From Clostridia bacterium (lineage in GTDB: Bacteria > Bacillota > Clostridia > TANB77 > CAG-465): a stretch of 64,000 nucleotides of DNA. The notes beneath the pieces were generated by a model. That model was not told the origin of the DNA and did no database searches. It saw only the letters and a program-made list of their open reading frames with translations. This document shows, one piece after another, positions 3,143-46,152 of the stretch (position 1 is the stretch's first letter; every line of letters starts with the position of its first letter). Where the stretch lies: NCBI GenBank assembly GCA_017536445.1, contig JAFXHJ010000002.1:49467-113466 (forward strand). Reading direction: 5' to 3'. The position numbers and the translations under genes were made by a program.

Positions 3143-3760
3143 TTAATCATATAAATAGAAAGGTGGGTAAAAAGAGTCAATATATTCACATTCCATTGCT
3201 TTAAAAGCAGAAGTAGACATAGCGCTAGCCGCCTCAATAAGCTTATCCTCGTCATTAATATTAATCTCATTAATTAAAGTAGTGTAATATTTGTTGTTCT
3301 TATCTAACTCTAAATATTCTGCCCAAGCAGTAAAGATCTTGTTAACAAGTTCTTTACTTTTAGTATCAGGAAGTTGTTCAACTTTAGTAGTCCATAAAGT
3401 GTAATAATATGTATGTATAAATTCGAGATTAGTATGAAACATTGAAGCAATAGAAATATCTCTACTTGGTCTATATGGAGTTTCAAAGAAATAATTATCT
3501 TCATCCAAAACACAATCAATAAAATCTAATCTTTCATATATATCCTTCAAATCCTTTTTAGCAACTACTGCTAGTAACATTAGCATTTGCTTAATTGTAC
3601 TTTTTGTAGTATCTTGCATGCTGCTAATAGTAATATTACTGCCAGTTTCAGATATAGCGTTATATCCATCTAGAAAATCTTTAACTTCCTTTACGTTTAC
3701 TAACTCTAATAGTTCATCTAAAGAACATTTAATAGTATCTATGTAATTTTTAGAATCCAT
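3143..3760 (-). CDS. hypothetical protein (no recognisable motif)
   Basis: ORF with RBS ggaggtg before the MDSKNY start (3760). The upstream extension to 3835 in the ORF track lacks an RBS. Confidence 0.55.
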   Translation of the reverse strand: MDSKNYIDTIKCSLDELLELVNVKEVKDFLDGYNAISETGSNITISSMQDTTKSTIKQMLMLLAVVAKKDLKDIYERLDFIDCVLDEDNYFFETPYRPSRDISIASMFHTNLEFIHTYYYTLWTTKVEQLPDTKSKELVNKIFTAWAEYLELDKNNKYYTTLINEININDEDKLIEAASAMSTSAFKAMECEYIDSFYPPFYLYD

Positions 3761-3906
3761 AGAAACACCTCCATAAAATTTACATAGCAGTATTATAGCA
3801 TAAATATACCAAAATACAACTAAGCGGATATACATTAGTTGTTAGAATAACCATCCTGTGATATAATACAAGAAGAAAAACAAGTGAAATGCAAAGGAGA
3901 TAATAT

Positions 3907-4530
3907 ATGGAAAACAAAGAAAAACAAGCAGAACAAATATGGGGAAACACGGAACAATATAAAGAATTTAAGGATAAGAATTTAACTAACCAACAACTAC
4001 TAAACAGTGGTGAACAGCTAATGCAAATATTTAAGGATATAGGCAAACTAAAAGATCTAAATCCAGATGCTAAAGAGGTTCAAGATAAAATACAAGAACT
4101 TAAAACATTCATCACAAACCATTATTATACTTGTACAAATGAAACATTAAAAGCATTAGGAGAAATGTATATAACAGATGCATTTAAAGCAAATATAGAT
4201 AGAGTAGGTGGAGAAGGAACGGCACAGTGTACACATAAAGCAATAAATGCATACTTAAAACAACAAGAAGTAGAAATAACACTAGATGAAGAAACAAATA
4301 CAGTACTAGCATATATAGATAACAAACAAGTAGGAGAATGTGTATATGTAACAACAAAAGAAGAAATAAACATAGTACACACAGAAGTAGATGAAGACTA
4401 CCAAGGAAAAGGAATAGCAGGAAAACTAGTAGATAGAGTAATAACATATGCAGAAGAACACAACAAAAGACTAGTAGCAGATTGTTCTTATGCAAAAAAT
4501 AGAATAGAAAAAAGAAACCCAAACAAATAA
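3907..4530 (+). CDS. TipAS-like antibiotic-recognition domain fused to small GNAT (YjdC/Acetyltransf_CG-type) acetyltransferase
   Basis: N-terminal ~115 aa matches the TipAS pattern (QIWGNTEQYKEF...DAKEVQDKIQELKTFITNHYYTCTNETLKALGEMYITDAFKANID). C-terminal ~90 aa has the minimal GNAT pattern (VGECVYV...IVHTEVDEDYQGKGIAGKLVDRVITYAEEHNKRLVADCSYAKN). Confidence 0.7.
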   Translation: MENKEKQAEQIWGNTEQYKEFKDKNLTNQQLLNSGEQLMQIFKDIGKLKDLNPDAKEVQDKIQELKTFITNHYYTCTNETLKALGEMYITDAFKANIDRVGGEGTAQCTHKAINAYLKQQEVEITLDEETNTVLAYIDNKQVGECVYVTTKEEINIVHTEVDEDYQGKGIAGKLVDRVITYAEEHNKRLVADCSYAKNRIEKRNPNK

Positions 4531-5201: not shown

Positions 5202-5423
5202 ATGGGACAAGGAAAACTAAAAGTAACTAAAGAGAGTGAAACTGGCAGAAATATAGAGTTTCAAAATACAGGCAATAATGAAAAATTAACAGCACAAGAA
5301 CTTATTTGTAGACTAGAAACTGGCAATTCTGTTTACAATCAAAGTTACTATATAAAACATCAAGGTGATGAAAAATACATAGTTTCTAAGCCAGATGGTA
5401 AGATAAAAAACAATTTGGGATAA
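5202..5423 (+). CDS. small hypothetical protein (73 aa; possibly DUF3892-like)
   Basis: RBS aggaggttgat, 73-aa ORF. Family assignment from memory only. Confidence 0.45.
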   Translation: MGQGKLKVTKESETGRNIEFQNTGNNEKLTAQELICRLETGNSVYNQSYYIKHQGDEKYIVSKPDGKIKNNLG

Positions 5424-5652
5424 TAAAAATAAGGAATAGCTTCATAGAAAAATATGAGGCTGTTCCTTTTATGTTTAATTTAATGGATTGGGAGGAAAGT
5501 GATATGAATTTAAAAGATTTATTGCTAAGTAAACAAAACATATTAAGGATAAGTTTGAAAAAAAGTAACAGCATACAACATTTAGTTACTTGTAGAAACG
5601 AACTGGAAACAAGTGAGGAATGTAATCTAGTATATTTATTAGGAGGTTTTCA

Positions 5653-6198
5653 ATGGAAATAATAGAATCTGAAATAAGACAAATTTTTGCATCTGTAGTT
5701 TGGAATCATAAAATACACGAAAAACAATGTGATATTAATAGTAAACACTATAATTTTTTAGAGTTTGTAAGATTGCTTTCATCTGTAATTACGACATCTG
5801 GTCTGTTGACTTGTATATTTATAGATGAATTCTATGTGAAACTAGTAACAACAATAGTTTCAGCAATTTCTATGTTTGTAACTGCATTTTGTAAAACATA
5901 TAATATAAAAGATACGATGCAGGAACATAAAGTTATAGCGTTGGAATTCTTACAACTAAAGAATGAAATAATAAGCATATTATCGGAGATAAAAATAAAA
6001 AGAATAGATGAAGAAAGAGCAATAGAAAAGCGAAATAAAGTATTGGACAAGTATCATACATTGTGTAAAAAAAGTCTAAATACAACTGATAAAGCTGTAA
6101 AACTTGCTAGTAAAGCGCTGAAAGAACAAAGAGACAATACATTTGACGATAAAGAAATAGATAGTTATCTGCCGATAGAGTTAAGAAAGGAGAAATAA
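5653..6198 (+). CDS. 2-TM membrane protein, SLATT-like predicted effector partner of the downstream nucleotidyltransferase
   Basis: RBS aggagg. Two predicted TM helices (LLSSVITTSGLLTCIFI; LVTTIVSAISMFVTAFC) followed by a charged helical tail. Stop TAA abuts the ATG of the next gene (translational coupling). Confidence 0.5.
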   Translation: MEIIESEIRQIFASVVWNHKIHEKQCDINSKHYNFLEFVRLLSSVITTSGLLTCIFIDEFYVKLVTTIVSAISMFVTAFCKTYNIKDTMQEHKVIALEFLQLKNEIISILSEIKIKRIDEERAIEKRNKVLDKYHTLCKKSLNTTDKAVKLASKALKEQRDNTFDDKEIDSYLPIELRKEK

Positions 6199-7476
6199 AT
6201 GTTAGCTAGAGATTTTGAAGAGTTTTGCAGTAATATTAAATTAGACAACAAAGAAGACATGGAATCTACTGTAAAAGATATAACTAAAAAATTAAATAAA
6301 CACTATTATGATTTAGATGATGCAGTTGAACATATGCACACTGTGGGCTCTGTTGGAAGAACAACTGCGATAAAAAATACTAGTGATTTAGATATATTAT
6401 TCGAATTACCACAAAGTGTATACGACAGAATAAATGACAATGAGGGGAATAAGCAATCACAATTGTTGCAAGAAGTAAAAAATGTGTTGAAGGATAGATA
6501 TCCCAACACTGACTTAAGAGGAGATGGACAAGTAGTAGTTATTAATTTTTCTAAATATACGGTAGAATTAGTCCCAGCTTTTAAGAATGATGACGATTCG
6601 TATAAATATCCAGATTCGAATGAAGGAGGAAAGTGGAGAAACACAAATCCGTTGCCAGAAATAGAAAAATGTCTAGAAATAGATGATCAGACAAGTGGAA
6701 ATTTCACGAATATATGCCATATGCTTAGGGCTTGGAAGAATAAAGCGGGATTTAAGTTTAAGGGCTTACTAATAGATACATTGACTAATAACTTTCTTAA
6801 TAATAATGAACAATACAAAAACTGTAATTATGAAGATTATCTAAATTTAATCAAAGATTTGTTTTTGTATTTGAAGAGTCAGAACAAGGAACAAGAATTT
6901 TGGCATGCTATAGGAAGTAATCAAAAAGTCTATGATGATGGAAGGTTTATTAGAAAAGCTGCTAAAACATATGAAGAAATAAAAGATTTAGAAGCGGATA
7001 CTGAAAGAATAAATAAAAAGTTAAGAAAAGTGTTTGGAAGAGAATTTCCCAAAAGAGACGAAGAGGAAACACAAAATAAATATAATTATGATAATACCGA
7101 AGAGTTTATAGAAGATCGTTATCAAATAGATATAATATTGAATGTACAATTAAAGTGTATAGTTACTCAAGATGGTTTTCGACCTACAGATTTAAGGGCG
7201 TTGAAATTTTTGAAGAAAAATAGAAAACTTGAGTTTGAGATAGAAAACAAGTCAGAACTTGTAAAAAATGGAGTGGAACATATTATATGGAAAGTAAAAA
7301 ATGAAGGCGAAATAGCGGAAAAAAGAAATCATATTAGAGGGCAATTGTTAATGACAGACCGTTATAATCGAGAAGAAAACACTAGTTTTGAAGGACCACA
7401 TTATGTAGAAGTATATGTTATAAAGAAAAATATTTGTGTTGGAAAAGGCAGAGTAGATGTAAATATTGCACCTTAA
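6199..7476 (+). CDS. SMODS/CD-NTase-like (cGAS/DncV-like) nucleotidyltransferase with uncharacterised ~130-aa C-terminal domain
   Basis: Pol-beta NTase core motif 'GSVGRTTAIKNTSDLDILFELP' (GS...x10...[DE]xD). Downstream 'VELVPAF' strand and 'W...NP...L.IDDQTSGNFTNICHMLRAWK' helix are typical of CD-NTases. Coupled to the upstream 2-TM gene. Confidence 0.6.
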   Translation: MLARDFEEFCSNIKLDNKEDMESTVKDITKKLNKHYYDLDDAVEHMHTVGSVGRTTAIKNTSDLDILFELPQSVYDRINDNEGNKQSQLLQEVKNVLKDRYPNTDLRGDGQVVVINFSKYTVELVPAFKNDDDSYKYPDSNEGGKWRNTNPLPEIEKCLEIDDQTSGNFTNICHMLRAWKNKAGFKFKGLLIDTLTNNFLNNNEQYKNCNYEDYLNLIKDLFLYLKSQNKEQEFWHAIGSNQKVYDDGRFIRKAAKTYEEIKDLEADTERINKKLRKVFGREFPKRDEEETQNKYNYDNTEEFIEDRYQIDIILNVQLKCIVTQDGFRPTDLRALKFLKKNRKLEFEIENKSELVKNGVEHIIWKVKNEGEIAEKRNHIRGQLLMTDRYNREENTSFEGPHYVEVYVIKKNICVGKGRVDVNIAP

Positions 7477-7484
7477 AGCACCCT

Positions 7485-7512
7485 CCCCACAATACACTTG
7501 TGTATTGTGGGG
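7485..7512 (+). terminator. terminator after nucleotidyltransferase gene
   Basis: Perfect 13-bp stem ccccacaatacac/gtgtattgtgggg with 2-nt loop. Confidence 0.55.
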
Positions 7513-7531
7513 ATAAGCATAGGAGAAACAA

Positions 7532-7891
7532 ATGAATAATGTTAATTTAGAAAGATATATAGAAGCACATAAAAGAGAATATAAACAAGCATTAGAAGAA
7601 ATAAAGAATGGTAAAAAGAAAACACATTGGATGTGGTATATATTTCCGCAAATAGATGGATTAGGAATAAGTAGCACATCTAAATATTATGCAATAAGAA
7701 ATAAAGAAGAAGCAAAAGCATATCTAAATAATGAATATCTATATAATCATTTAATAGAAATATGTAAAGAGTTAATGAAATTAAATACAAACAACATAAT
7801 AGAAGTACTACTTTATCCAGACAATTATAAACTATGTTCATCTATGACATTATTTTATCTAACTAACCCTAAAGAAGAAATCTTTAAGTAA
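7532..7891 (+). CDS. DUF1810 family protein
   Basis: Characteristic 'HWMWYIFPQ' motif and ~120-aa size. RBS aggagaaacaa. Confidence 0.6.
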   Translation: MNNVNLERYIEAHKREYKQALEEIKNGKKKTHWMWYIFPQIDGLGISSTSKYYAIRNKEEAKAYLNNEYLYNHLIEICKELMKLNTNNIIEVLLYPDNYKLCSSMTLFYLTNPKEEIFK

Positions 7892-8155
7892 GTATTAGAT
7901 AAATACTATAATGGTAAATTAGATGAAAAGACTATAGAGATATTAAATAAACAACAAAACAAATAACACATTATTTGTGTATAAAATCCATGCTAATAGT
8001 GTTGGCAAAATAAAATGTATGAGTAAAGAGAGCAGAGATGCTCGCTTTTTATAACATCATAACAAAATACGACAAAAGTCTTCAAAAATTTGGTAATTCA
8101 ATTGAGAAATTATGTGTTTTATGATATAAAATACATAAATAAACGGAGGTTACAA

Positions 8156-9715
8156 ATGAATAATAAAAATATGAAAGAAAGAGAAGAACTACACAAGGCA
8201 ATATGGGCTATTGCAGATGATTTAAGAGGTTCTGTAGATGGATGGGATTTCAAACAATATATACTAGGTATAATGTTTTATAGATATATATCAGAAAATA
8301 TAACAAATTACATAAATGAAGGCGAAAGAAAAGCAGGAGATAAAGATTTTGATTATGCAAAATTATCAGATGCTGAAGCTGAAACAGTAAGAGAAGATTT
8401 GGTAAAGGTAAAAGGCTTCTTTATATTACCTTCAGAACTATTTTGCAATGTATGTAAAAGAGCAAAAAGTGATGAAAACTTAAATGAAACACTAGAAAAC
8501 ATATTTAGCAATATAGAAAATTCTGCAAAAGGAGCAGAGAGCGAAGATGACTTTGCAGGATTATTTGCGGATTTAGATGTAAACAGCAATAAATTAGGTG
8601 CATCTGTACCTAAAAGAAATGCTAAATTAGTGAAGATACTAGAAGGTATAGCAAATATAAAACTGGGTAATTATCAAGACAACTCAATAGATGCATTTGG
8701 AGATGCTTACGAATTCTTAATGGGTATGTATGCATCAAATGCAGGAAAATCTGGTGGAGAATTCTATACACCACAAGAAGTAAGTGAACTATTAACAAAA
8801 CTTGCTGTACTTGGAAAAACACAAGTAAACAAAGTATACGACCCAGCTTGTGGATCTGGTTCATTGCTATTAAAAGCAGCTAAAATACTAGGTAAAGAAA
8901 ATGTAAGAAATGGCTTCTTTGGCCAAGAAATAAACCTAACAACATATAACCTATGTAGAATAAATATGTTCTTACATGATATAGACTATGATAAATTTGA
9001 TATAGCTTGTGAAGACACATTGGTATCACCACAACATTGGGATGATGAACCGTTTGAAGTAATAGTTTCAAATCCACCATACTCAATAAAATGGGCAGGA
9101 GACGATAACACAGTATTAATAAACGACCCTAGATATTCACCAGCAGGAGTACTAGCGCCAAAATCTAAAGCAGACTTTGCATTCATAATGCATTCATTAG
9201 CTTGGCTTGCAACAAATGGAACAGCGTCAATAGTATGTTTCCCGGGAATATTATATAGAGGTGGCGCAGAACAAAAAATTAGAAAATATTTAATAGACAA
9301 TAATTTTGTAGATGCAATTATACAATTACCAGATAATTTATTCTACGGAACATCAATAGCAACTTGTATTATGGTTCTAAAGAAGAACAAAAAAGATAAT
9401 AGCACATTATTCATAGATGCAACTAATGAATGTGTTAAAGTAACAAACAATAATAAACTTACGGACGAAAATATAGATAATATAGTAAATATATTTGCAA
9501 AAAGAGAAGATATAGAATATGTTGCAAAGCTTGTATCAAACAAAGAAATAGAAGAAAATGAATATAACTTATCTGTATCAACATATGTAGAAAAAGAAGA
9601 TACAAGAGAAAAAATAGACATAGTTAAGCTTAATAAAGAAATAGAAGAAATAGTTGCAAGAGAACAAGTACTTCGTGATGAAATAAATAAAATAATAGCA
9701 GAAATAGAGGTGTAA
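8156..9715 (+). CDS. hsdM: type I restriction-modification system, M subunit (N6-adenine DNA methyltransferase)
   Basis: N-terminal HsdM_N region, SAM motif DPACGSGSLLL, catalytic NPPYS motif. Start at ATG 8156 with RBS acggagg; the ORF-track 8090 start lacks an RBS. Confidence 0.92.
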   Translation: MNNKNMKEREELHKAIWAIADDLRGSVDGWDFKQYILGIMFYRYISENITNYINEGERKAGDKDFDYAKLSDAEAETVREDLVKVKGFFILPSELFCNVCKRAKSDENLNETLENIFSNIENSAKGAESEDDFAGLFADLDVNSNKLGASVPKRNAKLVKILEGIANIKLGNYQDNSIDAFGDAYEFLMGMYASNAGKSGGEFYTPQEVSELLTKLAVLGKTQVNKVYDPACGSGSLLLKAAKILGKENVRNGFFGQEINLTTYNLCRINMFLHDIDYDKFDIACEDTLVSPQHWDDEPFEVIVSNPPYSIKWAGDDNTVLINDPRYSPAGVLAPKSKADFAFIMHSLAWLATNGTASIVCFPGILYRGGAEQKIRKYLIDNNFVDAIIQLPDNLFYGTSIATCIMVLKKNKKDNSTLFIDATNECVKVTNNNKLTDENIDNIVNIFAKREDIEYVAKLVSNKEIEENEYNLSVSTYVEKEDTREKIDIVKLNKEIEEIVAREQVLRDEINKIIAEIEV

Positions 9716-9716
9716 T

Positions 9717-10400
9717 ATGAAGGAAAAAGGTGGATATATATACATATTAACAAATCCTTCTTTCAAAGAATATGTAAAGATAGGATATGCAGATGATGTA
9801 GAACAAAGACTAAAACAACTAAATAGAAGTGAATGTATTCCTTTTGCTTTCAGAATATATGCTGTTTATGAAGTAGATTCTAGATTATCAGATATAAAAA
9901 TACATTCAATTATAGATAAATTAAACCCAAATCTAAGATCAATAGATACATTTGAAGGAAAAGAAAGAAAAAGAGAATTCTATGCTATGACACCAGAAGA
10001 TGCATATAGCATTTTAGAGGCGATAGCCGAAATAAATGGTAGAAAAGACAAACTAAAATTAGTTGCACCAACTAAATACGAAAAACACGAAGAAGAAATG
10101 GCAGATGATGTAAAGCAAGAGAATATGGAAAGACTAATACCATTTAACTTTAATATGGTAAATATTAAACCTGGAGAAGAATTAGAATTTGTAAATAATG
10201 CAAGCCCTAATAATGGTGTGACTTGTATAGTTGTAAACGATAAACAGGTTGAGTATAATGGAGAGAAATGGTCGTTATCTGCACTAGCAACTAAACTTTC
10301 TGATGCAAAATGGGGAGTTGCTGGACCACGTTACTTCAAACACAAAGGTGAATGGCTAAACAGTATAAGAAAAAGACTGGAGGGCACAGATAGTGAGTAA
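9717..10400 (+). CDS. GIY-YIG (T5orf172-type) nuclease domain protein with C-terminal DUF4357-like domain, inserted between hsdM and hsdS
   Basis: N-terminal 'GGYIYILTN...YVKIGYA' GIY-YIG signature. 2-nt gap after hsdM. 8-nt overlap with hsdS. Confidence 0.65.
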   Translation: MKEKGGYIYILTNPSFKEYVKIGYADDVEQRLKQLNRSECIPFAFRIYAVYEVDSRLSDIKIHSIIDKLNPNLRSIDTFEGKERKREFYAMTPEDAYSILEAIAEINGRKDKLKLVAPTKYEKHEEEMADDVKQENMERLIPFNFNMVNIKPGEELEFVNNASPNNGVTCIVVNDKQVEYNGEKWSLSALATKLSDAKWGVAGPRYFKHKGEWLNSIRKRLEGTDSE

Positions 10401-11673
10401 ATTAGAACAGTTAATTCAAGAATTATGCCCTGATGGTGTGGAATATAAAAAGTTCAATGAAGTGGCAGAATACATTAGAGGAGTGTCATACAACAAATCT
10501 AAGGAAATTAATAATGGGAAAGAAGGTCACAAACTTTTAAGAGCTAATAATATAACATTGTTATCTAATGAATTAAATTATGATGAAGTTAAAATTATTG
10601 ATTTTTCTGTCAACGTAAAACCAAATCAAATGCTATTAAAAAATGATATTTTAATATGTGCAGGAAGTGGAAGCAAAGAGCATATTGGAAAAGTTGCGTT
10701 TATAGAGAAGAATATAAATTACACATTTGGAGGATTTATGGGGGTAATAAGAATAAAACACAATATAATGAATCCAAGATATATGTTTCACATAATGACT
10801 AGTCCTATATTTAAGGCTCATCTTAGTAAGGTATCGAATAGTAGTACCATAAATAATATAAACAATGATACTTGGAAAGAATTCTATTTTCCTGTACCTC
10901 CGTTGGAGGTACAATGTGAAATTGTCCGTATTTTGGACCATTTCACATTACTTACAGCAGAGCTTACAGCAGAGCTTACAGCAGAGCTTACAGCAAGAAA
11001 GAATCAATATGATTATTATATGGATGCGTGTTTTAAGAGTATTAAATCGACGGTAAAGGTAAAGATGTCAGATGTGTTAATTTCATTAAAAACAGGTTTG
11101 AATCCTAGAAAGTTTTTTCAGTTAAACACAGATGATGCACAAGGATACTATGTTACAGTTAGAGAACTAGGAGATAGACAAGTAAAATATTGGCAATCAA
11201 AAGATAAAGTAAATCAAGTTGGCTTAAATAGAATAAATGAACGCTCTAATTTAGAAATTAATGATGTTTTGTTTAGTGGTACTGGAACAATCGGTAGGGT
11301 ATCATTAATTGAAGAGAAACCAAATAATTGGAACGTAAAGGAAGGGGTATACATACTAAAACCAGATACTAAAGTAATAAATCCTGTGTTTTTAATGTAT
11401 TTGATGAAATCAAATTATATGAGAAATATATATTCTAATTATATAGTTGGTTCACCAGTAGCAAGTGTGCCGATGAAAGATTTAAAAGAACTAGAATTTG
11501 ATTTGCCATCAATTGAAGAACAAGAAAAAATAGTAGCGATATTAGATAGATTTGATAAATTATGTAATGACATTTCAGAAGGCTTACCTGCAGAAATAGA
11601 AGCAAGACAAAAACAATATGAATATTATAGAGAGAAGTTATTGTCTTTTAAAGAGGTAAAAAAATATGAATGA
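10393..11673 (+). CDS. hsdS: type I restriction-modification system, S (specificity) subunit with central (TAEL)3 repeat
   Basis: Two TRD-like halves separated by a central conserved region containing LTAELTAELTAELTA. C-terminal conserved helix (DRFDKLCNDISEGLPAEIEARQKQYEYYREKLL). GTG start overlapping the upstream stop. Confidence 0.88.
   Translation: MSKLEQLIQELCPDGVEYKKFNEVAEYIRGVSYNKSKEINNGKEGHKLLRANNITLLSNELNYDEVKIIDFSVNVKPNQMLLKNDILICAGSGSKEHIGKVAFIEKNINYTFGGFMGVIRIKHNIMNPRYMFHIMTSPIFKAHLSKVSNSSTINNINNDTWKEFYFPVPPLEVQCEIVRILDHFTLLTAELTAELTAELTARKNQYDYYMDACFKSIKSTVKVKMSDVLISLKTGLNPRKFFQLNTDDAQGYYVTVRELGDRQVKYWQSKDKVNQVGLNRINERSNLEINDVLFSGTGTIGRVSLIEEKPNNWNVKEGVYILKPDTKVINPVFLMYLMKSNYMRNIYSNYIVGSPVASVPMKDLKELEFDLPSIEEQEKIVAILDRFDKLCNDISEGLPAEIEARQKQYEYYREKLLSFKEVKKYE
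10951..10995 (+). repeat. 12-bp tandem repeat cttacagcagag x3.7 encoding (TAEL)n in hsdS central conserved region
   Basis: Direct reading: three perfect 12-mers plus one partial unit, in frame. Confidence 0.9.
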
Positions 11674-12733
11674 TGTGTATGATACAATAGAAACAGTTGC
11701 TGAAGGAATTAAAACAAATTTAATAAACAAAGAAGATAAAAAATCAATAACATTGTTATATGCTTTTAGTTCTACAGGGAAGACAAGAATATCTAGAATA
11801 TTATCTGATGAAGAAAATAATGATAACATTTGTTTCAATTCTTTCATTACAGACTTATTTGTTTGGGATAATGAAAATTTTGTAATTAATATTCCAAAAG
11901 ATTGCTGGATTGTTAAATTTATAAATGAACAAGGAATTGAAAATCAGATAAAGGATAATTTTAGAGAACTTGTAACTTCAAAAGTAGAGCCAAGGTTTGA
12001 ATTAAATGAAGGCAAAATCAAGTTTGATATACCAACTGGTGATAATAACGTAGAGACAGGAATAAAAATTTCAAAAGGAGAAGAAAGTTTATTTATTTGG
12101 AGTGTATTTTACACAATTTTAACCATTGTAATAGAAGAACTGAATATGAGTAAAGATAACCGAAGTACAGACGTTTTTAATAATTTACAATACGTTATTA
12201 TAGATGATCCGATTTCTTCAATAGATGATTCGAAAATTGTAACTATGGCACTGCAATTAATAGAAGCTATAAACAGTAGTAAAAGCAATTTGAAATTCTT
12301 TATTACAACACATCTGGCGTTATTTTATAATGTAATATACTCTAATTATAGAAAATCAAAAGATTTTAATTCTATTGTTTTAACAAAAAAAGATAATCAA
12401 TTCTATTTAACTAATCAATCAAAAGATACACCGTTTGGTTATCATTTAACTCTTAAACAAGAAATTGAACGAGCAATAGAAAACGATGATATAAGAAAAT
12501 ATCATTATAATTTGTTTAGAAATTTAATCGAAAAGACAAGTAATTTCTTGGGGTATAAAGAGTGGACAAACTGTATTGCTGGAAATCGAAAAACAGAATT
12601 TATAAAGAAAATAAATTTATATAGCCATAGCAGATTAATAGATTGGGAATATAAACAATTACCAGAGGAAGATAAGGAACTATTTAAAGAAGTATATAAT
12701 AGCTTTAAAAAAGAGTATAAATGGGAGGAATAA
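11666..12733 (+). CDS. P-loop ATPase-like protein at the PrrC position of the type I R-M operon (possible anticodon-nuclease/abortive-infection-like)
   Basis: Walker A-like 'AFSSTGKT', Walker B-like 'VIIDDPISSIDD'. Sits between hsdS and hsdR, overlapping hsdS by 8 nt. Anticodon-nuclease identity is not demonstrated. Confidence 0.4.
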   Translation: MNDVYDTIETVAEGIKTNLINKEDKKSITLLYAFSSTGKTRISRILSDEENNDNICFNSFITDLFVWDNENFVINIPKDCWIVKFINEQGIENQIKDNFRELVTSKVEPRFELNEGKIKFDIPTGDNNVETGIKISKGEESLFIWSVFYTILTIVIEELNMSKDNRSTDVFNNLQYVIIDDPISSIDDSKIVTMALQLIEAINSSKSNLKFFITTHLALFYNVIYSNYRKSKDFNSIVLTKKDNQFYLTNQSKDTPFGYHLTLKQEIERAIENDDIRKYHYNLFRNLIEKTSNFLGYKEWTNCIAGNRKTEFIKKINLYSHSRLIDWEYKQLPEEDKELFKEVYNSFKKEYKWEE

Positions 12734-12741
12734 TATTTAAT

Positions 12742-15700
12742 ATGAATAAATATAATGTAGTAATGGAAATGAGTAATTCTACAGTTGCAGCAGAATATGA
12801 ACCCTTAAAGAAGCGCTCTGAGGCATATCAATCTGAAGCCGCTTTAGAGGAAGAATTCATAAGAATGCTTACTGAACAGGGATATGAACGTTTGATGATT
12901 CATAATTCAGAAGCGTTAGTAGATAATTTGCGTAAACAATTAGAATTACTTAATGATTACAAATTTACAGATTCAGAATGGGCTAGATTTTTTAATAATA
13001 ACATTGCTAATAACAATGATGGCATTGTAGAGAAAACTAGAAAAATACAAGAAGATTACATTCAAGTTCTAAAAAGAGATGATGGGACAAGCAAAAATAT
13101 CTATCTATTAGATAAGAAGAATATTCATAACAATAGACTACAAGTTATTAATCAATATGTAGAAAATGAAGGTAATTATAATAATAGATATGATGTAACT
13201 GTTCTTGTTAATGGCCTACCTTTAGTACATATAGAATTAAAAAGAAGAGGAGTTGCTTTAAAGGAAGCGTTTAATCAAATAAACAGATACCAAAGGGATA
13301 GCTTTTGGGCTGGAAGTGGACTATATGAATATGTACAAATATTTGTAATATCTAATGGAACTACTACAAAGTATTATTCTAATACTACCAGAGAAAGTCA
13401 CATTAAAGAAAAAGCAGCTGGCAGAAACAAAAGTAAAAAGACAAGTAATAGTTTTGAGTTTACTTCATATTGGGCTGATGCAAATAACAAAGTAATACCA
13501 GATTTAGTAGACTTTACAAGAACATTCTTTTCCAAACATACATTGTTAAATATATTAACTAAGTATTGTGTGTTTACTTCAGAAGATTTGTTACTTGTAA
13601 TGAGACCTTATCAAATAGTTGCAACAGAAAGAATATTAAATAGAATAGAAGTTGCAAAGAATTACAAAAAAATGGGAACTATAGAAGCTGGTGGATACAT
13701 TTGGCATACAACTGGTTCTGGAAAAACTCTAACATCTTTCAAAACAGCACAGCTTGCAACAAATTTAGAATATATAGACAAAGTATTATTTGTTGTAGAT
13801 AGAAAAGACTTAGACTATCAAACAATGAAAGAATACGACAAGTTTGAAAAAGGCGCTGCTAATGGAAATAGAAGTACTAAAGTATTACAAAGACAATTAG
13901 AAGATAGCACATCTAGAATAATAGTTACAACTATTCAAAAATTAAGTGAATTTGTAAAGAGAAACAAAACTCATCCAGTATATCAAAAACATATGGTATT
14001 AATATTTGATGAATGTCATCGTTCACAATTTGGTGATATGCATAAGATGATAGTAAAAAGCTTTAAGAAATACCATTTGTTTGGGTTTACAGGAACACCT
14101 ATATTTGCTAAAAATGCATTTAACAAATCTAATCCGGACTTCTGTACGACAGAGCAAGCTTTTGGAGATAAACTACATACATATACAATAGTTGATGCTA
14201 TAAATGATGGAAATGTACTTCCATTTAGAATAGACTATGTAAATACAGTAAAATCTAAAGAAGGAATGAAGGATAAGCAAGTAACTGCAATTAATACAGA
14301 AGAAGCATTAGCTTCTCATGAAAGAGTTAGCAAAGTAGTAGAATATATAATTGAACATTTTGACCAAAAGACAAAAAGAAATGCTTTTTATGACTTAAAA
14401 GGACAAAGATTAAATGGATTTAACTCAATATTTGCAGTTAGTTCAATACCAATGGCTAAAAAGTATTATGCAGAGTTTAAGAAACAACTAGAGGAAGCTA
14501 ATAAAGATTTAACCATTGCAACGATATATTCTTTTGCAGCAAACGAAGAAGACAATTTAGATGGAATATTAGACGATGAAGGTTTTGAAACAGAGTTATT
14601 AGATCAAAGTTCTAGAGAATTCCTAGATTTTGCGATTGATGAATACAATAAGAAGTTCAAAACAAATTTCTCATCAGAAGGAAATGGATTCCAAGATTAT
14701 TATAAAGATTTATCTGATAGAGTAAAGAAAAGAGAAATAGATTTACTTATAGTTGTAAATATGTTCTTAACAGGATTTGATGCAACAACATTAAATACAT
14801 TGTGGGTAGATAAGAACTTAAAACAACACGGATTAATACAAGCATTTTCAAGAACTAATAGAATATTAAATTCAGTTAAATCTTATGGAAATATAGTTTG
14901 TTTTAGAGATTTACAAGAACAAACTAATGATGCAATAGCACTATTTGGAGATAAAGATGCAAGTGGTATTGTATTATTAAAATCTTATGAAGATTACTAC
15001 TATGGATACGAGGATGAAAAAGGTAAGAAACAAAAAGGATATGAAGAAAGAATAGCTGAACTTATTCAAAAATATCCTTTGGGTGAACCAATAATAGGTG
15101 AGCAAAACGAAAAAGACTTTATTGTATCTATGGGTAATATTTTAAGATTAAGAAATATATTATCTTCGTTTGACAAGTTTGAAGGAAATGAAATACTTTC
15201 ACCAAGAGATTTACAAGACTATATAGGAACATATACAGACCTATATGAAAAGTATAAACCAGACCCAACAGATAGCGAAAGCATTAAAGATGATATTGTA
15301 TTTGAAATGGAACTTGTAAAACAAGTAGAAGTAAACATAGATTATATTTTAATGCTTGTTGCTAAATATCATAAATCAAATTGTAAAGATAAAGAAATAC
15401 TTGGTTCTATCGATAAAGCTATTAAGTCAAGCTTAGCGTTACGTTCTAAGAAAGAGTTAATAGAATTGTTTATTGAAAGAATAAATACTGTAGCGGATGT
15501 GTTTAAGGATTGGACTAAATTTGTAAAAGAACAAAAAGAAATAGACTTGAAAGCATTAGTTGAAGAAGAAAACTTAAACGAAGATGAAACTAGAAGATTC
15601 TTAAATAATTCATTCAGAGATGGACAAGTTAAAACAACTGGAACAGATATAGAAAAGATATTACCACCAATGAGATGGTTTGGCGGTGGGAATAGAGCAG

Positions 15701-15864
15701 CAAGAAAACAAACTATAATACAAAAAGTGTCTAAGTTCTTTGAAAAATATTTTGGAATAGTAAATGTCGAAGAAGAAAAAGAAGATTTGTATGAAGTGTG
15801 CGAAGATAGCGAACCATATGAGGTGCTTATGGTTGCGGAAGATACGGAAAACGAGTATAAATAA
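12742..15864 (+). CDS. hsdR: type I restriction enzyme R subunit (DEAD/DEAH helicase-nuclease)
   Basis: Helicase motifs HTTGSGKT (Walker A) and FDECHRSQ (DEAH box), ~1040 aa. Start at ATG 12742 with RBS gggagga. Confidence 0.92.
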   Translation: MNKYNVVMEMSNSTVAAEYEPLKKRSEAYQSEAALEEEFIRMLTEQGYERLMIHNSEALVDNLRKQLELLNDYKFTDSEWARFFNNNIANNNDGIVEKTRKIQEDYIQVLKRDDGTSKNIYLLDKKNIHNNRLQVINQYVENEGNYNNRYDVTVLVNGLPLVHIELKRRGVALKEAFNQINRYQRDSFWAGSGLYEYVQIFVISNGTTTKYYSNTTRESHIKEKAAGRNKSKKTSNSFEFTSYWADANNKVIPDLVDFTRTFFSKHTLLNILTKYCVFTSEDLLLVMRPYQIVATERILNRIEVAKNYKKMGTIEAGGYIWHTTGSGKTLTSFKTAQLATNLEYIDKVLFVVDRKDLDYQTMKEYDKFEKGAANGNRSTKVLQRQLEDSTSRIIVTTIQKLSEFVKRNKTHPVYQKHMVLIFDECHRSQFGDMHKMIVKSFKKYHLFGFTGTPIFAKNAFNKSNPDFCTTEQAFGDKLHTYTIVDAINDGNVLPFRIDYVNTVKSKEGMKDKQVTAINTEEALASHERVSKVVEYIIEHFDQKTKRNAFYDLKGQRLNGFNSIFAVSSIPMAKKYYAEFKKQLEEANKDLTIATIYSFAANEEDNLDGILDDEGFETELLDQSSREFLDFAIDEYNKKFKTNFSSEGNGFQDYYKDLSDRVKKREIDLLIVVNMFLTGFDATTLNTLWVDKNLKQHGLIQAFSRTNRILNSVKSYGNIVCFRDLQEQTNDAIALFGDKDASGIVLLKSYEDYYYGYEDEKGKKQKGYEERIAELIQKYPLGEPIIGEQNEKDFIVSMGNILRLRNILSSFDKFEGNEILSPRDLQDYIGTYTDLYEKYKPDPTDSESIKDDIVFEMELVKQVEVNIDYILMLVAKYHKSNCKDKEILGSIDKAIKSSLALRSKKELIELFIERINTVADVFKDWTKFVKEQKEIDLKALVEEENLNEDETRRFLNNSFRDGQVKTTGTDIEKILPPMRWFGGGNRAARKQTIIQKVSKFFEKYFGIVNVEEEKEDLYEVCEDSEPYEVLMVAEDTENEYK

Positions 15865-15914: not shown

Positions 15915-15983
15915 AACAAACAAATGGTAAAAAATACAATACTTGTAAAAGAATGCTATTCGGTAATAGAAAGGAAGATTAAA

Positions 15984-16379
15984 ATGTTAGAATATATTTA
16001 TCCAATAATTACGGCTGCAATAAGCGGCATGGTAACATATTTAGTTGCTAGAAATGGAAATAAAAAAGATATCGAAGTAGTGAAAATACAAAACAAGGCA
16101 GAGATAGATAGGTTGGTAAATCAACATGCTATAGATATTGAATCTATGAAAGAAAAACATAAATTAGAATTAGAGTCAAAAGAAAAGGAGCATCAATATA
16201 AATTAGAGTTGATAAAAGCAGAGAGTGAAAACGAAATAACAAAGCAAAATGCTATATCGGGAAATGAAGCAGTTAACAATTTGGTGGTAGGACTTATGGG
16301 AAGTATCTTTGGAAGTGAGGCAGCTCAAAAGGAAATTGAGAAAGGAATAAAAGAAGCATTTAAGAATAAGGAGCAATAG
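15984..16379 (+). CDS. small membrane protein with coiled-coil tail (hypothetical)
   Basis: RBS aaggaag. One N-terminal TM (YIYPIITAAISGMVTYLV) followed by charged helical repeats (KEKHKLELESKEKEHQYKLELIK). Confidence 0.55.
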   Translation: MLEYIYPIITAAISGMVTYLVARNGNKKDIEVVKIQNKAEIDRLVNQHAIDIESMKEKHKLELESKEKEHQYKLELIKAESENEITKQNAISGNEAVNNLVVGLMGSIFGSEAAQKEIEKGIKEAFKNKEQ

Positions 16380-16380
16380 A

Positions 16381-17022
16381 ATGTTAAGAGAATTTGAAAA
16401 TATTTATATAGAAACATATTCCGCCTGGGAAAAATATAGGAAAGCAATTATATATAGAGTTTTGGCAGCGGTTATAGTAAGTTTAATAATATCATTTTTA
16501 AATTTTTGGGTGGGAGAACTAATTTTTTATCTATCCATTTTAACATTAATAGTTTTTGGAATATATGCTAGACGAAATGATTTTCAAGATGTAAAAAAAC
16601 AAAGTGCTAAAAAGGAGTTTAAGAATTATGATTACAAAAGAGCAAAGTTTGAGCAAATGAAAGATAAAATAGCTTTGTTATTAAAACAAAAGAATATGTA
16701 TAATAAAGAAAGCTTGGAAGTTATCATACATTCTTTTGAAGGTGAGATGACTAAATACGATAAGGTTTCCACAACAGCATCAATATTATCAATAATATTA
16801 GCAGTAATTGGTCTCAAACAAAAGTTGGCAACGATTGTTATTCTTATATTTGCTGCAGCTGGTACGGGATTGCTTATATCGTTCGTTGTTGAATGGATAT
16901 TAAAATACATATTGGTTAACAAGGTAAAATATAATGAACTTGTTAATGCTTTAGTAGAAATAGAATTGGAAGTTATAAATTCAAAAAAGAAAAAGAATTA
17001 TAACAGTATAAATAAAGAATAA
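16381..17022 (+). CDS. multi-TM membrane protein (hypothetical)
   Basis: Four predicted hydrophobic helices. 1-nt gap after the previous gene. Confidence 0.55.
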   Translation: MLREFENIYIETYSAWEKYRKAIIYRVLAAVIVSLIISFLNFWVGELIFYLSILTLIVFGIYARRNDFQDVKKQSAKKEFKNYDYKRAKFEQMKDKIALLLKQKNMYNKESLEVIIHSFEGEMTKYDKVSTTASILSIILAVIGLKQKLATIVILIFAAAGTGLLISFVVEWILKYILVNKVKYNELVNALVEIELEVINSKKKKNYNSINKE

Positions 17023-17044: not shown

Positions 17045-18346
17045 ATGAAATTTGATTTGGAACAAAAAATATACAACAAAAAAACAAAAGAATATTTCAA
17101 GGAGGTAGAAAGTTCGTTCTATGATGGAAATTATCGTTCGGCTACAGTAATGTTATATTCAGTGACAATAGCAGACATATTATATAAGCTAGAAGAATTA
17201 AGAGATGTATATGATGACAAAAAAGCAAAAAACATATTAAAATCAATAGAGATTCAAAGAAATGAAAATAGAATAAGTTCTGATTGGGAACAAGATTTGT
17301 TGAAACAGGTTAGGGAAGATACAGAAATAATAGAGGATATCACTTGGGCGAATCTAGAATATCTTAAAAAACTAAGGAATTTTTCTGCGCATCCCGCTTT
17401 TAATAGAAATAACGAATTAATTGCACCAACACGTGAAACTATAGCAGGACTAATAGAAGATATGTTAAATCAAATATTAATAAGACCGCCATTATTTGCA
17501 GATAAAATTATCGACTTAATAACCGAAGATATTGCGGAAAAAAGCGGAATTTTCACAGGAGATTACGATAAATTTGAACACTATATAAAAAATAAATATT
17601 TGATAAAAATGGGAACAGGTATGAAGACTCAAACGTTAAAAGCTTTTTGGAAATTTGTCTTTAAGCTAGAAAATGATGACTGTAATGAGAATAGAGAAAT
17701 TAACTATGAATTTATAAAAGTGCTTATTAAAAACGATAAATTGGTACACATTACTGAAATAAAAAATGATAAGCAATATTATAATCAAATAAGTGGAAAT
17801 ATAGAAATTCAAGAATATTTAATAAATCTTATTTACGAAATACCAGAAATATATGAATTTATAGAATATACTACAAGGACAGCTTTAGAATTAACATATA
17901 AACAAAAACCTTATCTAAATACAATTTCTTATTATAAATATCCAAATGTAGAAGAATTTTTGAAAAGTATAAAAGGTAATCAACTAACACGAAGAAAGTA
18001 TATAAGATTATTGGAAAGATATGTGAAGCAAGAAAACAAAGAAAAGGAGCTATATGATAAATATATAACAATATTTGCAGAGAGCGAAACATTTGATAAG
18101 GCTGATCACTTATTTACATATTTAATAGATAATAATTTAGAAAACTTTTCTGAAGAGCAAATAATTCGATTAATAGAGGTTGCTAATGGAAACAATCAAA
18201 TATATAATAGAAATAGAGCAAAGCATGATAATAATATTATTATTGAAAAATGTGCATATCGTTTAGGGATTGATTTTGACTATACAAAATATGAAAACTT
18301 CGAATATTCCGAAGAATTACTTGCTAAAGTATTATTTCCATTTTAA
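17045..18346 (+). CDS. HEPN-like (Rx4HP motif) Abi-family protein, candidate abortive-infection RNase
   Basis: 'KKLRNFSAHPAFN' contains the R-x4-H HEPN catalytic signature in a predicted helical context. 433 aa, alpha-rich. RBS gaggggataaattATG. Confidence 0.45.
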   Translation: MKFDLEQKIYNKKTKEYFKEVESSFYDGNYRSATVMLYSVTIADILYKLEELRDVYDDKKAKNILKSIEIQRNENRISSDWEQDLLKQVREDTEIIEDITWANLEYLKKLRNFSAHPAFNRNNELIAPTRETIAGLIEDMLNQILIRPPLFADKIIDLITEDIAEKSGIFTGDYDKFEHYIKNKYLIKMGTGMKTQTLKAFWKFVFKLENDDCNENREINYEFIKVLIKNDKLVHITEIKNDKQYYNQISGNIEIQEYLINLIYEIPEIYEFIEYTTRTALELTYKQKPYLNTISYYKYPNVEEFLKSIKGNQLTRRKYIRLLERYVKQENKEKELYDKYITIFAESETFDKADHLFTYLIDNNLENFSEEQIIRLIEVANGNNQIYNRNRAKHDNNIIIEKCAYRLGIDFDYTKYENFEYSEELLAKVLFPF

Positions 18347-19393: not shown

Positions 19394-19957
19394 ATGAAGA
19401 AGAAAATAAAGAACAAAGTAAGGAATGAAACAAAAAAGGAATTGGCAAGAAAAGATTTGAATAAGAATTTGGATTTAATATTAGATATAATGAAGAATGG
19501 GTATAATCAACATTATGAGAGAACACAAAGTTTGGATAGTAAAAGTGGATTCTTTGTAGCGTTTCATGCAGCGCTAATAGCATTTGTTTTAGATTTCGAA
19601 ACGATAAATAAAATGATTCATAATGATATTGAAAGTATGCCACAAATTGTCATAACAGTAGCGGCTACAATAATATTTGTGTTGCTATTATTAGTAGCTA
19701 TTGCCGCTATTGTAACATTTATGTGTAGTTTGATTTCAAGAAATATCAAATATATTCCAGAAGCAATATGCGCGGAAGTATATTACAATAGTGACAATAT
19801 AGATTTTAAGAAAAGACTATTAGAAGGCTATAAGGATATAGCAAGAAACAATGAAGAAGTATTGAAGAAAAAACATAGATCATTTAATTTAGGCGTTGCT
19901 TTAACTATTGCGGAAATTGTGCTGTGGTGCATTAGCATAATATTTAAATTGTTTTAA
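19394..19957 (+). CDS. membrane protein (hypothetical), Lys-rich N-terminus
   Basis: Two or three TM helices. RBS aatggag. Confidence 0.5.
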   Translation: MKKKIKNKVRNETKKELARKDLNKNLDLILDIMKNGYNQHYERTQSLDSKSGFFVAFHAALIAFVLDFETINKMIHNDIESMPQIVITVAATIIFVLLLLVAIAAIVTFMCSLISRNIKYIPEAICAEVYYNSDNIDFKKRLLEGYKDIARNNEEVLKKKHRSFNLGVALTIAEIVLWCISIIFKLF

Positions 19958-20814: not shown

Positions 20815-21177
20815 TTGGATACAATAGGTAAATATATAAGAGGTCAAAACCTATTAAGGATAAAACGCATAGTAGATGCGGATATAAACGGAGATAAATT
20901 TATTATACGAAGGAGAAAAAAGAATGTAGAGTTTATGAGAGAATATTCTTTAACAGATGAAGATGTTAAGAATATAGTAAGATCCCTTACTGTTAAAGAC
21001 TGTTTTAAAGGACCAGAGAAAGATAGAGATGAAGAATATGAGGGTTTTCTCTTTTTCTTTTGTCCGATGTTTGAAGGAATAAAATTATATATTAAGATTA
21101 GAATAGAAAGTGATGAGAAGTCGGTTTGTTTATCAGTGCATGAATTTGGTAAATATGATGAGGTGGGAGAAGTATGA
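20815..21177 (+). CDS. MqsR-family toxin (predicted mRNA interferase)
   Basis: Aligns by eye with E. coli MqsR along its length (LTVKDCFKGPE vs LSESDFYKSM; KLYIKIRIESDE...SVHEF vs QVYLKITVIHDVLIVSFKE). TTG start with RBS aaggatg. 4-nt overlap with the next gene. Confidence 0.6.
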   Translation: MDTIGKYIRGQNLLRIKRIVDADINGDKFIIRRRKKNVEFMREYSLTDEDVKNIVRSLTVKDCFKGPEKDRDEEYEGFLFFFCPMFEGIKLYIKIRIESDEKSVCLSVHEFGKYDEVGEV

Positions 21178-22187
21178 AAGTGTATTGTCCATATTGTAGA
21201 GAAGAAAAAGAATATATTATTGAAACAAGAGAAGTAAAAGAATTTAGAGGAAAAGAAATAGATACATATGAAAACGTAGCGATGTGTAAAACATGTAAGA
21301 ACGATTTGTATGTAAATGAATTAGAAACTGAAAATAGTAAAAGAATATATGAAGCATATAGACAAACTGAAAATATCATAAAACCACAAGATATAATAGA
21401 TTTGAGAAGCAAATATGATATATCACAAAGAGAATTAACTGCTATACTAGGATTTGGCAAAATGACAATAAATAGATACGAAAGAGGAGGAGTACCAACT
21501 AAATCTCAAAGTGATTATATTAAACTTTTAATAGAAAATGAATCTAAATTTATTGAGAAAGTAAAAGAAGCGTATAGTAAAAATAATATAACTAAAAAAA
21601 CATATGAAAAGATAATGTCTAAAGAAAATTATGAAGAATGTAATACTAATAATTTGCAAAATTTAATAAGAAAATGTATAACAAACAATCTATCTAGAAC
21701 GCCAGATATATATAATGGTTATAAGCTATTAGATTTAGATAAATTAGAAAATATTATTTCGTATATAGCAAGTCAAGTTAAAAATTTAACTGTTACAAGC
21801 ATTAATAAATATTTATGGTATATAGATATGTTATCTTTTAAAGAACAATGTGTTGCTGTAACAGGCCTAACATATGAGCATGAAAAGTTTGGCCCTACAA
21901 TAGATGGGAAAAACTATAATACGTTAATGATTCTAAACAACAAGTATGTTAAAGAAGAAACTGAAAATGATTATGGCACAACAACACAAATAGTAAGTAA
22001 AAAGAATTATGATCTTAATTGCTTATCTGATGATGAACTTGAAATTATAAACAAAGTAATTAAATTATTAAAAAACAAAAAAGTAACTGACATATCTGCA
22101 ATGTCCCATTTAGAAGATGGATGGAAAAAGACGAAAAGATATGAAAAGATTTCGTTTGAGTACGCAATGAATTTAAGCATAGATTAA
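21174..22187 (+). CDS. MqsA-like antitoxin (Zn-ribbon + XRE HTH) fused to C-terminal Panacea (DUF4065)-like domain
   Basis: N-terminal CPYC...CKTC zinc ribbon. HTH 'ISQRELTAILGFGKMTINRYERGGVPTKSQSDYIKLL' parallels MqsA 'LSQKEASEIFGGGVNAFSRYEKG...STIKLL'. C-terminal ~200 aa carries a DUF4065-like pattern (INKYLWYIDMLSF...GLTYEHEKFGPT). Confidence 0.6.
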   Translation: MKVYCPYCREEKEYIIETREVKEFRGKEIDTYENVAMCKTCKNDLYVNELETENSKRIYEAYRQTENIIKPQDIIDLRSKYDISQRELTAILGFGKMTINRYERGGVPTKSQSDYIKLLIENESKFIEKVKEAYSKNNITKKTYEKIMSKENYEECNTNNLQNLIRKCITNNLSRTPDIYNGYKLLDLDKLENIISYIASQVKNLTVTSINKYLWYIDMLSFKEQCVAVTGLTYEHEKFGPTIDGKNYNTLMILNNKYVKEETENDYGTTTQIVSKKNYDLNCLSDDELEIINKVIKLLKNKKVTDISAMSHLEDGWKKTKRYEKISFEYAMNLSID

Positions 22188-39400: not shown

Positions 39401-39476
39401 TGGAGCTGAAGGTCAGAATTGAACTGACGACCTGCTGATTACAAGTCAGCTGCTCTACCAGCTGAGCTACTCCAGC
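39401..39476 (-). tRNA. tRNA-Thr (anticodon UGU)
   Basis: Reverse complement folds as a cloverleaf: GCTGGAG acceptor, anticodon loop CTTGTAA, TTCAATT T-loop, encoded CCA. Confidence 0.9.
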
Positions 39477-39482
39477 GTGCAG

Positions 39483-39557
39483 TGGTGACCCGTAGGAGAG
39501 TCGAACTCCTCACTCCGCCGTGAAAGGGCGATGTCTTAACCGATTGACCAACGGGCC
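39483..39557 (-). tRNA. tRNA-Glu (anticodon UUC)
   Basis: Reverse complement GGCCCGTTGGTCAATCGG...CTTTCAC...GTTCGACTC...ACGGGTCACCA. Confidence 0.9.
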
Positions 39558-39560
39558 ATG

Positions 39561-39636
39561 TGGTGAGCTATCCGCGATTCGAACGCGGGACAACTTGATT
39601 AAAAGTCAAGTGCTCTGCCAACTGAGCTAATAGCCC
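39561..39636 (-). tRNA. tRNA-Lys (anticodon UUU)
   Basis: Reverse complement GGGCTATTAGCTCAGTTGG...CTTTTAA...GTTCGAATC...ATAGCTCACCA. Confidence 0.9.
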
Positions 39637-46076: not shown

Positions 46077-46152
46077 CGGGGTGTAGCTCAGTTGGTAGAG
46101 CGCGTGGTTTGGGACCATGAGGTCGCAGGTTCGGGTCCTGTCACTCCGACCA
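46077..46152 (+). tRNA. tRNA-Pro (anticodon UGG)
   Basis: CGGGGTG acceptor, anticodon loop TTTGGGA, TTCGGGT T-loop, encoded CCA. Confidence 0.9.

Follow-up and report, generated by a model that had tools for sequence, protein, structure and literature searches.

A SLATT_4 membrane protein and a CD-NTase/AGS-C protein encoded by abutting genes as a likely two-gene type I CBASS system in a Clostridia bacterium

Results and discussion

The stretch of DNA analysed here, termed the window, comprises 64,000 nucleotides from a Clostridia bacterium (GenBank assembly GCA_017536445.1, contig JAFXHJ010000002.1, positions 49,467 to 113,466) and contains a cassette of two genes that, judged from its sequence and from structural models, is highly probably a two-gene type I cyclic oligonucleotide-based antiphage signalling system (CBASS) acting through abortive infection in the general way set out below. 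Two plus-strand open reading frames (ORFs) were read from the sequence: positions 5653-6198 encode a 181-aa SLATT_4 membrane protein (SLATT in the following), and positions 6199-7476 a 425-aa cGAS/DncV-like nucleotidyltransferase (CD-NTase) that is fused to a C-terminal AGS-C domain (the cyclase). An earlier note, made from the sequence alone, had described a minimal CBASS-like pair consisting of a SLATT-like protein with two transmembrane (TM) helices and a SMODS/CD-NTase protein, and this description is borne out, with both proteins scoring far above the curated cut-offs in Pfam and PADLOC. Type I CBASS is reportedly composed of a cyclase and an effector, with no Cap2/Cap3, HORMA/TRIP13 or type IV genes: this is what is present here, since neither flanking gene (DUF3892, 5202-5423; DUF1810, 7532-7891) has a PADLOC match, in agreement with the note's statement that Cap2, Cap3 and SAVED are absent. 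As a two-gene cassette without ancillary genes, the pair is thus type I CBASS by definition. It is not a new kind of system, because the architecture is already catalogued in PADLOC, Pfam and NCBIfam and homologous pairs defend against phage.

The cyclase: SMODS core and AGS-C domain

The 425-aa protein was matched by the SMODS profile (PF18144) over residues 3-158 with 151.9 bits (cut-off 26.5; E 2.4e-44) and by the PADLOC cyclase profile PDLC00796 over residues 2-424 (E 9.1e-156): the search against SMODS/CD-NTase profiles that had been suggested as a check therefore gave a strong match. The predicted fold of the protein is bilobed and of the cGAS/DncV type, and the nucleotidyltransferase motifs that had been noticed previously (GS...DLD...VELVPAF) are present in the sequence as GSVGRTTAIKNTSDLDILFELP, VELVPAF and NFTNICHMLRAWK. 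The Pol-beta catalytic signature, which consists of G[GS], [DE]x[DE] and one more acidic residue, is complete, its elements being encoded by the codons of G50-S51 (6346-6351), D63 (6385-6387), D65 (6391-6393) and E123 (6565-6567). These five residues are invariant across 20 homologues, and in comparison with PaCdnD, G50-S51, D63-L-D65 and E123 align with GS, DID and D, respectively.

The C-terminal region of about 130 aa, which the earlier note had left unassigned, is instead a known domain: residues 299-423 were matched by the AGS_C profile with 113 bits (cut-off 26.7), and they are predicted to form an immunoglobulin (Ig)-like beta-sandwich C-terminal to the nucleotide cyclase. The review PMC7288161 applies the name "AGS-C" to the helical lobe of DncV; this usage disagrees with Pfam PF18134 and with 9ARD and was not adopted. 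An Ig-like AGS-C domain is found on about 40% of type I CBASS CD-NTases, where it is confined to clades B, F, G and H and absent from A, C, D and E, and the fusion thus limits the clade of the cyclase to B, F, G or H (10.1101/2023.05.21.541620). Based on the AGS-C fusion together with the SLATT partner, our guess would be an F-like clade.

The SLATT_4 membrane protein

The 181-aa protein was matched by the SLATT_4 profile (PF18186) over profile positions 2-165 of 165 with 130.6 bits (Pfam cut-off 27; E 6.1e-38), by the NCBIfam SLATT_4 model (NF033632) with 113.6 bits (cut-off 55) and by the PADLOC 2TM effector profile PDLC00696 (E 1.8e-51). Two hydrophobic stretches are apparent at residues ~38-57 and ~61-81 (Kyte-Doolittle, 19-residue windows above 1.6), and the AlphaFold model agrees with the two TM helices that had been predicted for this protein. 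The model is all-helical (pLDDT 83): a long helix (residues 2-56) enters the first membrane segment and is joined through a loop (57-59) to a second helix (60-83), which provides the other arm of the hairpin, with three further helices (85-114, 120-140 and 146-156) all placed on the same side of the membrane. Both hydrophobicity and model hence display the two adjacent TM helices flanked by soluble helical parts that characterise SLATT_4, and the genomic association of this family with a SMODS gene was found here as well as in all assessable loci of relatives. A search of the PDB yielded no solved relative of SLATT, either by sequence or by fold (best fold E 0.7).

Conservation and spread of the gene pair

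Proteins identical to both members of the pair are already present in public databases, where they derive from a metagenome-assembled Clostridia genome and bear the names "nucleotidyltransferase" and "SLATT domain-containing protein", with the next relatives following at 65-70% identity. At E <= 1e-10 the cyclase was matched by at least 1,721 proteins, and among the matches listed all 120 cyclase relatives combine SMODS with AGS_C. Conservation of the pair was assessed on 80 species-level genome loci with a cyclase relative, one of which was left out because it is cut by a contig end: in each of the 79 assessable loci (79/79) a SLATT gene of the SLATT_4 or SLATT_6 type adjoins the cyclase gene, lying directly upstream of it in 76 loci and directly downstream in the other 3. 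A scan of 64 upstream genes identified 62 as SLATT, comprising 38 SLATT_4 and 24 SLATT_6. The effector-first order to which the earlier note had drawn attention is thus correct for the window, while the 3 of 79 loci with SLATT downstream indicate that gene order is a lineage habit and no rule; the cyclase comes first on a Leclercia plasmid, the one enterobacterial relative inspected. In one locus (L020), SLATT-like genes apparently flank the cyclase on both sides (3407-3979 and 5358-5876), the downstream gene being matched by the SLATT of the window (E 3e-31) and the upstream ORF encoding 190 aa.

Near-full-length cyclase matches were found in 94 plasmid records, and the search for phage-borne copies returned only three partial matches among 50,697 phage records. 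The surroundings of the cassette vary: in three relatives (L006, L007 and L008) it adjoins a gene for a 655-aa SLFN-g3 helicase/nSTAND3-like protein (5512-7479), and in another (L005; 2026-3220 and 6699-8231) its neighbours are two phage-integrase genes, a Fic gene and phage replication genes. These differing mobile and defence neighbours in the closest relatives indicate that the cassette moves between islands.

Comparison with characterised systems

A homologous pair (pUCCL631_167/168) from the Lactococcus plasmid pUCCL631C has been cloned and is recorded by the authors as having confirmed antiphage activity; they call the systems tested, the Lactococcus pair included, consistent with abortive infection and describe lysis-in-broth behaviour (PMC11381338). 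As in the window, a SLATT gene (PF18186, 190 aa) is followed directly by the gene of an NTase/AGS-C cyclase (408 aa). The two cyclases exhibit 42% identity over 408 residues (E 4e-96) and the two SLATT proteins 30% (E 5e-14); the GS, DxD and (I/V)ELVPAF motifs are shared, with IELVPAF in the Lactococcus protein in place of VELVPAF. The systems differ in that the Lactococcus pair resides on a mobilizable plasmid, whereas the pair described here belongs to a chromosomal island of a metagenome-assembled Clostridia genome, and in that the Lactococcus genes overlap by 4 nt whilst those of the window abut. The Lactococcus cyclase is also 17 residues shorter overall, the gaps falling in AGS-C and in the linker that precedes it. 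Judged by sequence, the two pairs are too diverged for strict orthology.

The second point of comparison is provided by the EcCdnF04-SLATT6 and EcCdnF05-SLATT6 operons of E. coli, which restrict phages of five families, and a distinctive pattern of phage range is common to AGS-C-bearing operons (Richmond-Buccola et al., 10.1101/2023.05.21.541620). Like the cassette in the window, these operons combine a CD-NTase/AGS-C fusion with a SLATT-family membrane effector and have no ancillary genes; their effector is SLATT_6 in place of the SLATT_4 found here, and the host here is Gram-positive. Pairing with SLATT_6 also occurs in about a third of the cyclase relatives (24/64 upstream genes).

A more general likeness exists to CdnB06-Cap15 and other type I CBASS with TM effectors, in which a cyclase (often with AGS-C) is combined with a small membrane-disrupting, nucleotide-sensing effector. 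Cap15 is said to possess a beta-barrel ligand-binding domain, whereas the SLATT_4 model is all-helical, and neither a ligand-binding domain could be recognised in it nor a structural neighbour found in the PDB. In the Pycsar system (PycC-AGS-C with PycTM) the cyclase is of a different family and is not a cGAS/DncV-like nucleotidyltransferase; PycC is described in the literature as making cyclic CMP/UMP. SLATT4 and SLATT6 are among the membrane proteins that jointly form the most abundant class of CBASS effectors (Nature Communications, PMC12480259).

Cassette layout and boundaries

The features of the cassette are collected in Table 1 together with those of a restriction-modification operon discussed below. 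The SLATT and cyclase genes are joined stop-to-start, with no nucleotide between the TAA at 6196-6198 and the ATG at 6199, and we propose that they constitute one transcription unit that is well delimited by the hairpins on either side of it. The downstream hairpin has no T-run, and for want of a T tail it was not called in the terminator scan. DUF3892 and DUF1810 were considered as members of the cassette and rejected, as both genes are set off by the hairpins and absent from all relatives' loci. The same 0-nt junction is present in ten relative loci (L005-L010, L012-L014 and L030), with small overlaps or gaps in other relatives. The abutment reported in the earlier note is therefore confirmed, and it is a sign of tight co-transcription and possibly of translational coupling; the stoichiometric co-expression that had been read into it does not follow, however, because the cyclase gene has its own Shine-Dalgarno sequence. 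At the Shine-Dalgarno position of the SLATT gene, GGAGG is kept in the alignment of relatives.

The region between the upstream hairpin and the SLATT gene (5469-5652) is most likely a promoter and leader region. An extended -10 element (TGATATAAT) is conserved in relatives, in most of them ~25 nt before the SLATT ATG, and we infer the placement of the promoter within this leader from the alignment with these sequences. A structured RNA or riboswitch in the leader was considered and rejected, as Rfam returned only chance-level matches there, which fell on the terminator hairpin.

Table 1. Features of the SLATT-cyclase cassette and of the type I restriction-modification operon (window coordinates).
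Feature	Position	Strand	Details and basis
Terminator-like hairpin at the end of the upstream DUF3892 gene; 5' boundary of the cassette	5431..5468	+	16-pair stem, then TTTTATGTTT; RNAfold -22.9 kcal/mol
Probable leader/promoter region of the cassette, including the orphan 63/52-aa ORF	5469..5652	+	
Shine-Dalgarno AGGAGG of the SLATT gene	5641..5646	+	6 nt 5' of ATG 5653; read from sequence
SLATT_4 two-transmembrane effector gene, 181 aa	5653..6198	+	Pfam, PADLOC, NCBIfam, AlphaFold
Transmembrane helical hairpin of SLATT	5764..5895	+	Residues ~38-57 and ~61-81, short loop DEF between
Shine-Dalgarno AAAGGAG of the cyclase gene, within the last SLATT codons	6186..6192	+	GGAG 6189-6192, 6 nt before ATG 6199
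CD-NTase/AGS-C fusion (CBASS oligonucleotide cyclase), 425 aa	6199..7476	+	
SMODS nucleotidyltransferase core, residues 3-158	6205..6672	+	Pfam PF18144
AGS-C immunoglobulin-like C-terminal domain, residues 299-423	7093..7467	+	AGS_C profile
13-bp G+C-rich hairpin just 3' of the cyclase stop; likely 3' end of the operon	7484..7513	+	RNAfold -22.3 kcal/mol
hsdM	8090-9715		
T5orf172/MUG113 protein gene	9717-10400		PADLOC PDC-S57, E 1e-97
hsdS	10393-11673		
PrrC-like anticodon nuclease gene, between hsdS and hsdR	11666-12733		PADLOC PrrC, E 3e-95
hsdR	12721-15864		

Proposed mechanism

In the mechanism that we envisage, the cyclase would be held inactive until a phage-derived cue appears, with the AGS-C domain probably helping to sense or gate this cue, as suggested by the name of the domain and by the published E. 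coli data. Once released, the CD-NTase core would condense NTPs to a cyclic di- or oligonucleotide, an activity that its fold and the residues G50-S51, D63xD65 and E123 lead us to expect. This nucleotide would then bind the cytoplasmic helical part of SLATT_4, which has no separate sensor domain, and SLATT_4, anchored through its two-helix hairpin, would oligomerise and permeabilise the cytoplasmic membrane, with the cell killed or arrested before phage release. For these steps of binding, permeabilisation and killing we draw on the family annotation and on the reported lysis-in-broth behaviour. The idea of the earlier note that the membrane protein would have to sense the signal directly can be kept, with the qualification that this is simply the standard model for TM effectors of type I CBASS.

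In the literature consulted, no in vitro product is reported for the AGS-C/SLATT branch, which may be F-like, and the all-helical SLATT_4 is without a solved relative; it is on these grounds conceivable, albeit doubtful, that the signal is a nucleotide not yet on the CBASS list and that a novel type of receptor embedded in the membrane reads it. If so, the property would belong to the whole catalogued family and not to the window locus alone. The locus itself adds a further Clostridia-lineage case to a defence architecture that is very common, and is of little importance beyond annotation. The questions that it raises are family-wide ones, namely the cue for AGS-C, the product of the cyclase and the way in which SLATT, for which a ligand-binding domain is not obvious, reads a nucleotide, and they are easier to address in the E. 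coli and Lactococcus members with phage phenotypes.

Alternative explanations

Nothing in the data contradicts the assignment as a type I CBASS system that functions as outlined, but several points call for caution. The third metal ligand of the cyclase is Glu, in contrast to the Asp of solved CD-NTases; this Glu is invariant in the subfamily, however, and is also present in the experimentally active Lactococcus homologue. The NCBIfam equivalogs CBASS_cyclase_a and CBASS_cyclase_b gave 94.1 and 61 bits against a cut-off of 200, and these scores place the 425-aa protein as related to, yet outside, the two curated subfamilies. For clade F enzymes, the likeliest relatives, no product had been seen in vitro (10.1101/2023.05.21.541620). 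The effector step is an extrapolation throughout, there being neither a structure nor a ligand on record for SLATT, and a promoter consensus scan gave no excess of sites over shuffled sequence, so that no promoter was called with confidence. A different role of the pair, either as a selfish module for addiction to or stabilisation of the island, or in nucleotide signalling for another physiological purpose such as a membrane stress response, would fit with relatives that are frequently plasmid-borne and located beside integrases, and CBASS can affect other phenotypes, for which antifolate sensitivity in V. cholerae is an example (10.1101/2023.02.27.530311). We regard such a role as very improbable, given that two independent studies describe protection against phages by homologous pairs with this architecture (PMC11381338; 10.1101/2023.05.21.541620), that the pair sits among other defence genes and that it occurs frequently but patchily across phyla, in many cases on plasmids, as defence genes typically do. 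The reading of the 425-aa protein as a generic nucleotidyltransferase of the Pol-beta/MNT toxin-antitoxin type, with the upstream membrane protein unrelated to it, has practically no probability left: the NTP_transf_2 match that speaks for it is weak (20.5 bits, E 6.5e-4) and falls under the cut-off of 21, on which the reading fails, and it was rejected in view of the strong SMODS/CD-NTase match and of the adjacency to SLATT in all of the assessable loci.

In addition to the two-gene CBASS pair, a third component had been suggested in the earlier note: a small ORF of 52 aa that starts at ATG 5504. This ORF, which can also be read from ATG 5471 as a 63-aa form, has its stop at 5660-5662 and shares 10 nt with the start of the SLATT gene. 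In a three-gene system the micro-protein would work with the pair, for instance by restraining SLATT or by serving as a leader for translational coupling. The frame is indeed open, carries a plausible GGGAGGA 7 nt before ATG 5504, is predicted by gene callers on several contigs and, in its 52-aa form, is still open in a 98%-identical strain variant (L090). In this same variant, however, the 63-aa form is interrupted (TGG to TAG), and the 52-aa part exhibits 3 synonymous versus 4 non-synonymous changes, compared with 10 synonymous versus 2 non-synonymous in the flanking DUF3892 tail and N-terminal part of SLATT; these numbers are small and the comparison is suggestive only. The small ORF has no family match among Pfam, PADLOC and NCBIfam profiles, in relatives whose two-gene cassette is retained at 65-67% identity the corresponding place carries no ORF, and tblastn against the 80 genome loci gave no match. 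A word-indexed search of 5.8 billion proteins retrieved, apart from an identical copy, just a single 52-aa variant at 92% identity. When 1.84 billion representatives were scanned in full with HMMER, the only additional matches were short, partial ones to two long repetitive proteins: neither protein set contained a homologue outside the same species-level lineage. The extended -10 of the relatives moreover aligns within the small ORF of the window, and since the terminator-like hairpin ends 3 nt before ATG 5471, there is no room for a promoter upstream of it. The small ORF was thus rejected as a conserved third component on the basis of the alignment with relatives, tblastn, the protein searches and the codon comparison with the strain variant, and a three-gene system appears hardly credible. 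We judge the ORF to be an orphan, non-coding or at most lineage-specific, that shows no sign of purifying selection.

Genomic neighbourhood

The neighbourhood had been described previously as a defence island, and a SoFic-like Fic gene, a type I restriction-modification operon with PrrC, a PD-T7-3 homologue and an MqsR/MqsA-Panacea pair were all identified in support of this. Upstream of the CBASS pair, positions 2050-2997 encode a helix-turn-helix/Fic protein (PADLOC SoFic, E 6e-34; PDC-S04, E 1.5e-35), which is a candidate single-gene defence system. The DUF1810 ORF downstream of the pair spans profile positions 2-117 of 136 and may be C-terminally short; it is followed by ~200 nt with no called gene and then by hsdM, the first gene of the restriction-modification operon (8090-15864; Table 1). 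This operon exhibits the classic layout of a prr locus plus an extra T5orf172 gene. In the central spacer of HsdS, around residues 195-210, a tandem peptide repeat (LTAELTAELTAELTA) is present, and the copy number of repeats of this type can alter the spacing of the recognised half-sites.

The PD-T7-3 homologue (17045-18346; PADLOC E 8e-122, no Pfam match) is preceded by the tightly packed ORFs 15924-16379 and 16381-17022, which may share its operon. The 187-aa membrane protein encoded at 19394-19957 was matched weakly by the PADLOC profile of the Pycsar effector PycTM (E 1.5e-6) and not at all by Pfam; no cyclase gene is evident beside it. Further downstream lies a toxin-antitoxin-like pair, in which the gene of an MqsR-like toxin (20815-21177; a weak match under the Pfam cut-off) overlaps that of an MqsA-type zinc-ribbon/helix-turn-helix protein fused to a SocA/Panacea domain (21174-22187). 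Rfam matches at gathering level across the whole window were confined to tRNAs: a cluster of tRNA-Thr(TGT), tRNA-Glu(TTC) and tRNA-Lys(TTT) is located on the minus strand at 39401-39636, and tRNA-Pro(TGG) on the plus strand at 46077-46152.

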